Positions 13,295 to 14,742 of a stretch of 33,016 nucleotides of DNA are shown one piece after another; positions within the stretch are counted from its first letter, which is position 1; the number at the start of each line of letters is the position of its first letter. The stretch lies in the NCBI RefSeq assembly GCF_003334385.1, contig NZ_QOWN01000050.1. The stretch is one strand, 5' to 3'. The notes below the pieces were generated by a model. It saw nothing but the letters and a program-made list of their open reading frames with translations. It ran no database searches and was not told where the DNA came from. A program made the position numbers and the translations under genes. This stretch comes from Escherichia coli. Its GTDB lineage: Bacteria; Pseudomonadota; Gammaproteobacteria; Enterobacterales; Enterobacteriaceae.

Positions 13295-13325
13295 AAAAAA
13301 GCCAACCCGCAGGTTGGCTTTTCTC
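13295..13325. terminator. bidirectional rho-independent terminator between convergent chiQ and fur
   Basis: AAAAAA-GCCAACC-CGCA-GGTTGGC-TTTTCT: perfect 7-bp stem with an A-run upstream and a T-run downstream. Confidence 0.8.
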
Positions 13326-13337
13326 GTTCAGGCTGGC

Positions 13338-13784
13338 TTATTTGCCTTCGTGCGCATGTTCATCTTCGCGGCAATCGCCTTCGGCACAGTGACCGTAAAG
13401 ATAGAGACTGTGGTTAGTCAGGCGAATGCCATGTTTTGCGGCAATTTCACGCTGACGCGCTTCGATGGAATCATCACTAAATTCGATAACCTTGCCGCAG
13501 TCGAGGCAGATCAGGTGATCGTGGTGATGTTGCTGTGTCAGTTCAAATACGGATTTACCGCCTTCAAAATTGTGGCGGGTGACGATACCAGCGTCGTCAA
13601 ACTGGTTCAGTACGCGATATACCGTAGCCAGACCAATTTCTTCACCCATATCGATCAGACGTTTGTATAAATCTTCCGCACTGACGTGATGGTTGTCCGG
13701 CTCCTGAAGAACTTCCAGGATTTTTAAACGAGGAAGCGTTACTTTCAGGCCAGCTTTCTTTAGGGCGGTATTGTTATCAGTCAT
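13338..13784 (-). CDS. fur: ferric uptake regulator Fur, 148 aa
   Basis: MTDNNTALKKAGLKVTLPRLKILEVLQEP... with the HHHDH metal-site motif. Confidence 0.95.
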   Translation of the reverse strand: MTDNNTALKKAGLKVTLPRLKILEVLQEPDNHHVSAEDLYKRLIDMGEEIGLATVYRVLNQFDDAGIVTRHNFEGGKSVFELTQQHHHDHLICLDCGKVIEFSDDSIEARQREIAAKHGIRLTNHSLYLYGHCAEGDCREDEHAHEGK

Positions 13785-13863
13785 GCGGAATCTGTCCTGT
13801 TACTAAGCGGTTCACTTCATTAGAAGAAGTGACAGAATTTGCTCTTGAGATAATGCGTATCAT
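13777..13863 (-). CDS. uof: uof, 28-codon upstream ORF translationally coupled to fur
   Basis: MIRIISRANSVTSSNEVNRLVTGQIPHD matches the published uof peptide; its stop overlaps the fur ATG by 8 nt. Confidence 0.75.
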   Translation of the reverse strand: MIRIISRANSVTSSNEVNRLVTGQIPHD

Positions 13864-13868
13864 TATAG
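13847..13868. promoter_or_regulatory. Fur-box-like motif overlapping the uof start
   Basis: GAGATAATGCGTATCATTATAG resembles the Fur box consensus GATAATGATAATCATTATC. Confidence 0.4.
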
Positions 13869-14041
13869 AATTGCCACGCCTAAATGAAAACCACAAGTCC
13901 CTGGCAAATATTGTTAATAAAAACGTGGCACAGCTTACATTTACAACGGCAAGGCCACTTGAACACCGGGACATTGTACAGGTACAACAGCAAAAGTTAC
14001 AAATTTGTAGCAATTATTTTGATTGGCATTATCTATTAATA

Positions 14042-14066
14042 CGGCGTAGACATGAGTCTACGCCGC
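14042..14066 (-). terminator. stem-loop just downstream of the fldA stop
   Basis: CGGCGTAGAC-ATGA-GTCTACGCCG, a perfect 10-bp stem. The downstream T-tract on the minus strand is weak, so this may be a partial terminator or RNA-processing structure. Confidence 0.4.
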
Positions 14067-14072
14067 ATCACA

Positions 14073-14603
14073 TCAGGCATTGAGAATTTCGTCGAGATGC
14101 AACTCTTCAGAAATCTGTTTAACCCATTTTTCTACACGTTCAGCGGTCAGTTCCGGCTGACGGTCTTCGTCGATAGCCAGACCGACAAAGTGGTCGTCAT
14201 CTGCCAGACCTTTTGATGCTTCGAAATGATAGCCCGCAGTTGGCCAGTGACCAACGATGGTTGCACCGCGCGGTTCAATGATGTCGCGGATGGTGCCCAA
14301 TGCGTCGCAGAAATATTCGGCGTAATCTTCCTGGTCACCACAACCAAACAGCGCAACCAGTTTGCCGTTGAAATCAATCTCTTCGAGAGTCGGGAAGAAG
14401 TCATCCCAGTCACACTGCGCTTCGCCGTAATACCAGGTTGGGATGCCCAGCAGCAGAATGTCATAAGCTTCCAGATCTTCTTTGCTGCTTTTTGCAATGT
14501 CATGGACATCGGCAACGTCTTTACCAAGCTGTTTTTGAATCATTTTTGCGATATTTTCGGTATTACCGGTGTCGCTGCCGAAAAAGATGCCAGTGATAGC
14601 CAT
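14073..14603 (-). CDS. fldA: flavodoxin 1, 176 aa
   Basis: Internal Met 40 of the track ORF gives [23 protein letters not shown], the flavodoxin FMN-binding loop. Confidence 0.95.
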
Positions 14604-14742
14604 GAGTGAAATAACCTCTTGAAACTTATTGAAATGGGGGTGGAAAATTGCCCACGGATAAAGGCAATCATAGCAGAACAGGCAGTCTTGCGGAATCAGC
14701 AAACGAGCAGGACTGCACACTGTGCTACATGAAAGTGGAAAT

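Follow-up and report, generated by a model that had tools for sequence, protein, structure and literature searches.

Fur is the master iron regulator of enterobacteria, and the control of its own dosage is well studied: it combines transcriptional autoregulation, input from OxyR and SoxS, and post-transcriptional control through RyhB and uof. The closest described counterparts of the locus analyzed here are the two features of the Escherichia coli fur region itself, the Fur operator of the fur promoter (de Lorenzo 1988; furPa/furPb in RegulonDB/EcoCyc) and the RyhB-regulated leader peptide uof (Vecerek, Moll and Blasi 2007). Autoregulation of fur is described in the literature as moderate or slight. 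Pfur, the promoter of fur, is located within the uof open reading frame, with a separate promoter, Puof, farther upstream (PMC6191717, PMC7867234), and the Fur box overlaps the –10 element of Pfur-a (PMC7867234). According to summaries of Vecerek 2007 given in PMC12683245 and PMC11550727, fur translation is coupled to that of uof, and this coupling is reduced by RyhB. More distant points of comparison are the strong Fur operators (fepA-fes, entC, fhuA, ryhB, cirA, fecI), in which overlapping 19-bp sites lie 6 bp apart over a core promoter, and translationally coupled overlapping gene pairs (ATGA or longer), in which the upstream stop codon falls inside the downstream start region and the downstream Shine-Dalgarno sequence is weak. 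The fur locus resembles both classes in these respects.

The stretch analyzed here in full, 33,016 nucleotides of E. coli DNA (the window), matches E. coli K-12 MG1655 at 100% identity, such that a window coordinate plus 696,862 gives the coordinate in NC_000913.3. RefSeq annotates fldA, uof (as ‘fur leader peptide’) and fur at the locus, with fur at 710200–710646 and uof (b4637) at 710639–710725 of NC_000913.3, both on the minus strand. The 1.4 kb around fur and uof, 100% identical to MG1655, is found in 5425 of 5426 complete E. coli genomes, and the 131 bp that comprise the promoter and uof are conserved at an identity of at least 99% in 5097 genomes. The translation of uof (13863..13777, minus strand) is MIRIISRANSVTSSNEVNRLVTGQIPHD, 28 codons followed by TGA, and scores 85.2 bits against the NCBIfam equivalog model NF011344 ‘fur leader peptide’ (cutoff 71). 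It is thus an open frame whose stop codon overlaps the start of the downstream gene, identical to the published 28-residue ORF with its 8-nt overlap. The operator likewise is the same element as that described previously, with a sequence identical to that in MG1655, and differs from it in nothing; what the present analysis adds is its weak matrix score and the lineage-restricted occurrence of its right half. The Fur operator and the uof leader are therefore already known, and nothing new was found; the refinements are that the operator is weak, that it acts on the –10 element and start of Pfur, and that the main fur transcript is devoid of the uof start codon. With a probability of roughly 90%, we take the region to be the known fur regulatory region of E. 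coli K-12, with a weak Fur operator over Pfur and uof coupling on upstream transcripts. Coordinates of the individual features are collected in Table 1.

Table 1. Features of the fur–uof region in window coordinates.
Feature	Position	Strand	Basis and remarks
fur coding sequence, 148 aa	13338..13784	-	ORF list and annotation; ATG at 13784..13782
uof, 28-codon fur leader ORF, b4637	13777..13863	-	Translation; RefSeq/NC_000913.3 annotation; NCBIfam NF011344
uof/fur overlap, 8 nt, ATGACTGA	13777..13784	-	Read off the sequence; fur ATG plus uof TGA
Stem-loop TCACTTC-N7-GAAGTGA in the fur 5′ UTR, inside uof	13812..13832	-	MFE fold; –48..–28 from the fur ATG
Published Fur DNase I footprint, fur promoter	13846..13875		PMC2189734 coordinates (NC_000913.2) converted to the window
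Classical 19-bp Fur box TATAATGATACGCATTATC, 16/19 to consensus	13849..13867	-	Consensus scan; used for EMSA in PMC10318462
Main fur transcription start, 70-nt 5′ UTR	13854	-	Kim 2012; the G of the uof AUG lies 7 nt upstream
Pfur –10 hexamer TATAAT	13862..13867	-	Promoter scan; ends in the A and U of the uof AUG
Pfur –35-like hexamer TTTTCA, within conserved GTTTTCATTT	13885..13890	-	Promoter scan and conservation
Puof TTGTAA-18-TACAAT, start 13966; further minor start 13997	13966..14002	-	Promoter scan and Kim 2012

The element that drew attention to the locus is a 22-mer that reads GAGATAATGCGTATCATTATAG on the plus strand at 13847..13868 and contains a perfect inverted repeat with 6-nt arms, ATAATG and CATTAT (13850–13855 and 13861–13866), separated by a 5-nt gap. 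Such repeats are common, and the palindrome alone was rejected as evidence for a Fur site. The 19-mer TATAATGATACGCATTATC within it matches the Fur consensus GATAATGATAATCATTATC at 16 of 19 positions and is the sole match with three or fewer mismatches in the 33-kb window, where shuffled sequences lead one to expect 0.02. It is the consensus match of the Fur box, and not its small palindrome, that exceeds chance.

Matrix scores draw a more reserved picture. Using an independent palindromic single-dimer position weight matrix (PWM) trained on 15 footprinted or gel-shifted sites from which fur was left out, two registers are found at the fur site, at 13852..13870 (8.7 bits) and 13846..13864 (6.5 bits). 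Proven Fur sites scored by leave-one-out range from 9.5 (tonB) to 28 bits, with the strong operators named above at 19–28 bits; the fur site falls below all but one of the leave-one-out scores and is comparable only to tonB. Nor does either single score stand out from chance in 33 kb, for which the simulated maximum is 11.9 ± 2.4. The composite of the two registers, which lie 6 bp apart, reaches 15.2 bits and ranks first in the window, a value attained by 21% of simulated sequences. By way of comparison, a published model, in which fur was among the training sites, gave a strongest score of 12.3 bits for the fur site (PMC2189734). The initial annotation had proposed a sequence resembling a Fur box at 13847..13868, to be checked by a PWM scan; the resemblance holds by consensus, and the scan places the composite at the top of the window while leaving the single sites within chance. 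The best single PWM match in the window lies elsewhere, at 24181..24199 (ATTAAAATTAATATTCAAA; 11.1 bits), at the 3′ end of kdpE and upstream of speFL; it was rejected as a Fur site because its score is within chance expectation.

Published binding data locate Fur at the same place. Chen 2007 (PMC2189734, Table 3), drawing on de Lorenzo 1988, gives the part of the fur promoter that Fur protects from DNase I as NC_000913 709931–709960, with two predicted sites that cover 83% of it. These coordinates were converted by a shift of +777 between genome versions followed by the window offset; the shift reproduces the fepA site at –172 and the gpmA site at –35 exactly on the current annotation, and the older numbering is also that in which Kim 2012 gives fur as 709423–709869. 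The converted footprint encloses the 22-mer and spans –21 to +9 relative to the Pfur start, including TATAAT, and our two PWM registers together cover 25 of its 30 bp (83%), in agreement with the tabulated value. A 110-bp fragment corresponding to window 13775..13884, which carries the same 19-mer, was gel-shifted by [2Fe-2S]-Fur and not by apo-Fur (PMC10318462). In strain KO11FL, a ChIP-exo peak obtained under iron-replete conditions was assigned to uof,fur; the ChIP-exo supplements of PMC10164565 hold no MG1655 coordinate near fur among the entries listed. The footprint thus lies over the proposed element and not elsewhere, and together with the gel shift it supports the suggestion that the box serves autoregulation of fur. 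We conclude that Fur has a genuine operator here, albeit a weak one, in keeping with the moderate autoregulation that others have described.

The transcript starts mapped by Kim 2012 (PMC3415461) establish which RNA each of these elements belongs to. The main start, 709939 on the minus strand (window 13854; 46 reads; upstream 51-mer ending in TATAATGATACGCA), follows a promoter, TTTTCA-17-TATAAT at 13890..13862, that agrees with the consensus at 10 of 12 positions and is the best sigma-70 match found by the promoter scan in the intergenic region. Two weaker starts, 710051 (window 13966; 8 reads) and 710082 (window 13997; 5 reads), were assigned to uof, and the promoter TTGTAA-18-TACAAT fits the former. 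Farther upstream, fldA ends in a strong terminator with its stem at 14042–14065 and a Term-seq 3′ end at 710897 (window 14035). The uof AUG is therefore present only on minor transcripts, namely those that start at 13966 and 13997 and those that read through from fldA, and it is absent from the RNA that starts at 13854, downstream of it; the major fur mRNA lacks that AUG. Because the uof start codon lies in the –10 element of the main promoter, models that invoke uof coupling must name the transcript that they mean.

These positions also bear on the proposal that the box covers the uof initiation region. The uof ATG (13863..13861) does lie inside CTATAATGATACGCATTATCTC, the reverse complement of the 22-mer; the box nonetheless matters through the –10 element and start of Pfur, and the uof AUG falls on the operator only because the –10 hexamer ends in the A and U of that codon (TATAATG). 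Similarly, comparison with the mapped fur starts places the footprint over the Pfur start, as expected of an autoregulatory site, and at the same time places that start downstream of the uof AUG. The first nucleotide of the main Pfur transcript is also the first of uof codon 4 (AUU AUC UCA...), so that the RNA opens in the uof frame; this is probably a coincidence, as AUU is a poor leaderless start codon.

The anticipated overlap between the uof stop and the fur ATG is present as described, 8 nt shared at 13777..13784 (ATGACTGA), and the proposal that it supports translational coupling matches the uof–fur coupling reported in the summaries in PMC12683245 and PMC11550727. Since the major fur mRNA is devoid of the uof AUG, coupling would be confined to a minority of transcripts, those with an upstream start, a restriction that we infer from the mapped starts. 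uof departs from typical coupled gene pairs in that it has no Shine-Dalgarno sequence of its own at a usable spacing and the most abundant transcript does not include its start codon. The initial annotation omitted the start of the principal Pfur transcript inside uof. The computed Shine-Dalgarno energies of uof and fur, –3.6 and –4.0 kcal/mol, are good for neither, as compared with –6.5 kcal/mol for fldA. Sinha et al. (PMC6191717) report a decrease under RyhB for the short fur mRNA but none for the uof-fur mRNA, an effect that sits awkwardly with a purely uof-mediated model. In a duplex scan of the RyhB core (nt 31–66) against 13740..13990, the best site reached –15 kcal/mol and the best within uof –12.9 kcal/mol, with a mean of –16.9 kcal/mol for shuffled targets; the predicted duplexes are no better than those with shuffled sequence and single out no RyhB pairing site. 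The published interaction of RyhB with the fur leader has been found not to be predictable computationally (PMC3018821).

In order to place the locus in its family, fur loci of 80 Enterobacterales species representatives were compared, with counts of upstream ORFs (uORFs) taken over 81 sequences. The promoter core, consisting of GTTTTCATTT, a 17-nt spacer and TATAATGAGACGCA, is near-invariant in the 80 loci, including those of Erwinia, Pantoea, Dickeya, Pectobacterium and Hafnia, and TATAAT is unchanged in nearly all of them. Of the two halves of the Fur box, the right one, CATTATC, persists mainly in Escherichia, Citrobacter, Salmonella, Enterobacter and their close relatives and degenerates outside this group, whereas the left one coincides with the invariant –10 element. 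The resemblance to a Fur box is therefore in part promoter sequence; the median PWM score of orthologous fur promoters is 6.4 bits.

Unlike the promoter core, the uof frame is restricted to certain lineages. A uORF that begins at the ATG of TATAATG ends at +5 of fur, with the 8-nt overlap and 28–30 codons, in 37 of the 81 sequences and at +1, with an ATGA overlap in the other frame, in seven; it stops upstream of fur in 24 (after 16 codons in Salmonella arizonae and 14 in Klebsiella) and has no stop codon within the stretch examined in five. Among the lineages in which the frame is broken, missing or shortened are Salmonella arizonae, Klebsiella, Raoultella and Atlantibacter. The uORFs with an ATGA overlap (loci L032, L037, L040, L059, L064, L066 and L075 of our set), located about 60–80 nt upstream of fur, belong to Mangrovibacter, Cedecea, some Buttiauxella and one genome labelled Citrobacter. 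At the other end of the frame, the codons ACT GAY at the start of fur are near-invariant in the 80 Enterobacterales, with TGA at this position in 77, and ATGACTGA contains a stop codon for each of the two non-fur frames, irrespective of the sequence ahead of it. Among 22 distinct 28-codon uof sequences, variable sites number 13, 11 and 13 of 27 at codon positions 1, 2 and 3, with no excess at the third position; judged by these counts, the amino acid sequence of uof is under no detectable constraint. Of the 54 loci whose uORF is in a non-fur frame, 45 have no stop codon ahead of the fur start, as compared with 4 of 19 for the fur frame. These numbers ignore phylogeny; they may point to selection for uORFs that terminate at the fur AUG.

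Taken together, these data suggest a model for the regulation of fur at this locus. Holo-Fur would bind a weak operator composed of two overlapping sites 6 bp apart, at 13846..13870 and inside the footprint, such that the –10 TATAAT and the start at 13854 of the sigma-70 promoter Pfur would be covered. An operator so placed suggests that Fur excludes RNA polymerase, giving modest negative autoregulation, and promoter occlusion, as the simplest mechanism, is the mode of repression that we infer. Translation of uof would take place only from the longer and scarcer transcripts, those from Puof (13966), from the start at 13997 and from fldA read-through, and on these RNAs ribosomes that end uof at the TGA inside ATGACTGA would be placed on the weakly Shine-Dalgarno-led fur AUG.

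Three other readings of the locus deserve consideration. The look of a Fur box could be mostly a by-product of the sequence of the Pfur –10 element and start, with Fur binding physiologically too weak to matter. The near invariance of TATAATGAGACGCA and GTTTTCATTT even in Erwinia, Dickeya, Pectobacterium and Hafnia, alongside a degenerating CATTATC, would fit such a view, as would single-site scores within chance, the low median of the orthologues, autoregulation that is at most moderate, and the lack of an MG1655 ChIP-exo coordinate near fur among the entries listed in PMC10164565. It has to contend, however, with a DNase I footprint exactly at this position (PMC2189734), a gel shift with active Fur (PMC10318462), a 16/19 consensus match of which 0.02 are expected per window, a 6-bp spacing that is the same as in proven clusters and yields the best composite in the window, and the KO11FL ChIP-exo peak at uof,fur, and we therefore consider it quite improbable. 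A reading that moves the palindrome from DNA to RNA, as a hairpin or protein site acting at uof initiation and not as a DNA operator, can point to the fact that the repeat spans the uof start codon and that its 6-nt arms could pair in upstream transcripts. Arms of only 6 nt that are rich in A and U, a major mRNA that starts inside the palindrome, the protection of the DNA by Fur and the lack of a matching Rfam family make this reading scarcely credible.

The remaining reading concerns uof rather than the operator, and holds that uof is no functional coupling device for most fur expression: the overlap would follow from the codons ATG ACT GAY that encode the Fur N-terminus, and the uof ATG would be the tail of TATAAT plus a G. 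The main start at 13854, which excludes the uof AUG, and the lack of a usably spaced Shine-Dalgarno sequence are in keeping with this proposal, and so are the even spread of variable sites over codon positions, the broken frames in Salmonella arizonae, Klebsiella, Raoultella, Atlantibacter and others, the ability of ATGACTGA to stop both non-fur frames regardless of upstream sequence, and the selective effect of RyhB on the short mRNA (PMC6191717). Against it are the genetic evidence for coupling published in Vecerek 2007, as relayed by PMC12683245 and PMC11550727, the predominance of open uORFs in the non-fur frames (45/54 versus 4/19, phylogeny being ignored), the existence of upstream starts that include the uof AUG, and the curation of uof as an equivalog family; we regard it as unlikely. 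The combination of a weak Fur operator over Pfur and uof coupling on upstream transcripts remains our preferred account.

The leader of the short fur mRNA has conserved features of its own. A per-sequence hairpin search finds a counterpart of the stem-loop listed in Table 1, at an unchanged position, in 68 distinct Enterobacterales leaders. The 5′ arm takes 36 different forms, and the pairs include CACTTC/GAAGTG, ACTTCC/GGAAGT, TTGCTCC/GGAGCGA, CGCTCA/TGAGCG and AGGCT/AGCCT; a constant position with many different stem sequences indicates compensatory change. A stem of at least 6 bp is present in 47 of the 68 sequences, as compared with 31% of shuffles. As indels put the hairpin out of register in a MAFFT alignment of 32 leaders, RNAalifold returned no more than a trivial 3-bp helix, and a search of 13300..14700 against Rfam gave no meaningful match, leaving the hairpin without an Rfam family. 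Downstream of the hairpin, AACAGGAC (13791..13800), followed by 9 nt and then CCGCATGAC, is almost invariant in the 80 loci. The conservation of AACAGGAC goes well beyond the need of a weak Shine-Dalgarno sequence, and the ACAGGA core of this region bears a possible resemblance to a GGA motif of the CsrA type.

Two RNA ends fall near this segment. Term-seq detected a very abundant 3′ end at 710645 (window 13783), the second nucleotide of the fur AUG, which was flagged ‘uORF’ and has low terminator and Rho scores (Adams 2021). Kim 2012 (PMC3415461) reported a 5′ end at 709876 (window 13791; minus strand; 28 reads), 7 nt upstream of the fur ATG, that is possibly a processed end. The ends at 13783 and 13791 suggest processing at the uof stop and fur start, or a stable RNA derived from the leader. 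A more far-reaching interpretation is that the ancestral, conserved regulators of fur in Enterobacterales are the invariant Pfur core, the hairpin at –48..–28 and the invariant AACAGGAC-N9-ATG arrangement, that the Fur box and uof frame of E. coli are overlays of its lineage, and that RyhB and iron, given a dominant mRNA devoid of the uof AUG, act mainly on the short leader directly and not by way of uof translation; we offer this tentatively and consider it doubtful on balance. If true, it would call for revision of the accepted uof-coupling model.

Returning to the weak Fur operator over Pfur as the preferred reading, the PWM scan also marked a second cluster in the same intergenic region, at 14012..14036, between the fldA terminator, which it closely follows, and Puof. 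Its two sites, with 7.0 and 6.8 bits, lie 6 bp apart and form the second-best composite in the window. This palindrome could be a second Fur site or a site for another regulator. An orthologous palindrome, ATTGATAGNTAWWASCAAT, occurs at –245..–267; its score rises to 17.4 bits in Cedecea and to 13.4 bits in Buttiauxella and Entomohabitans.
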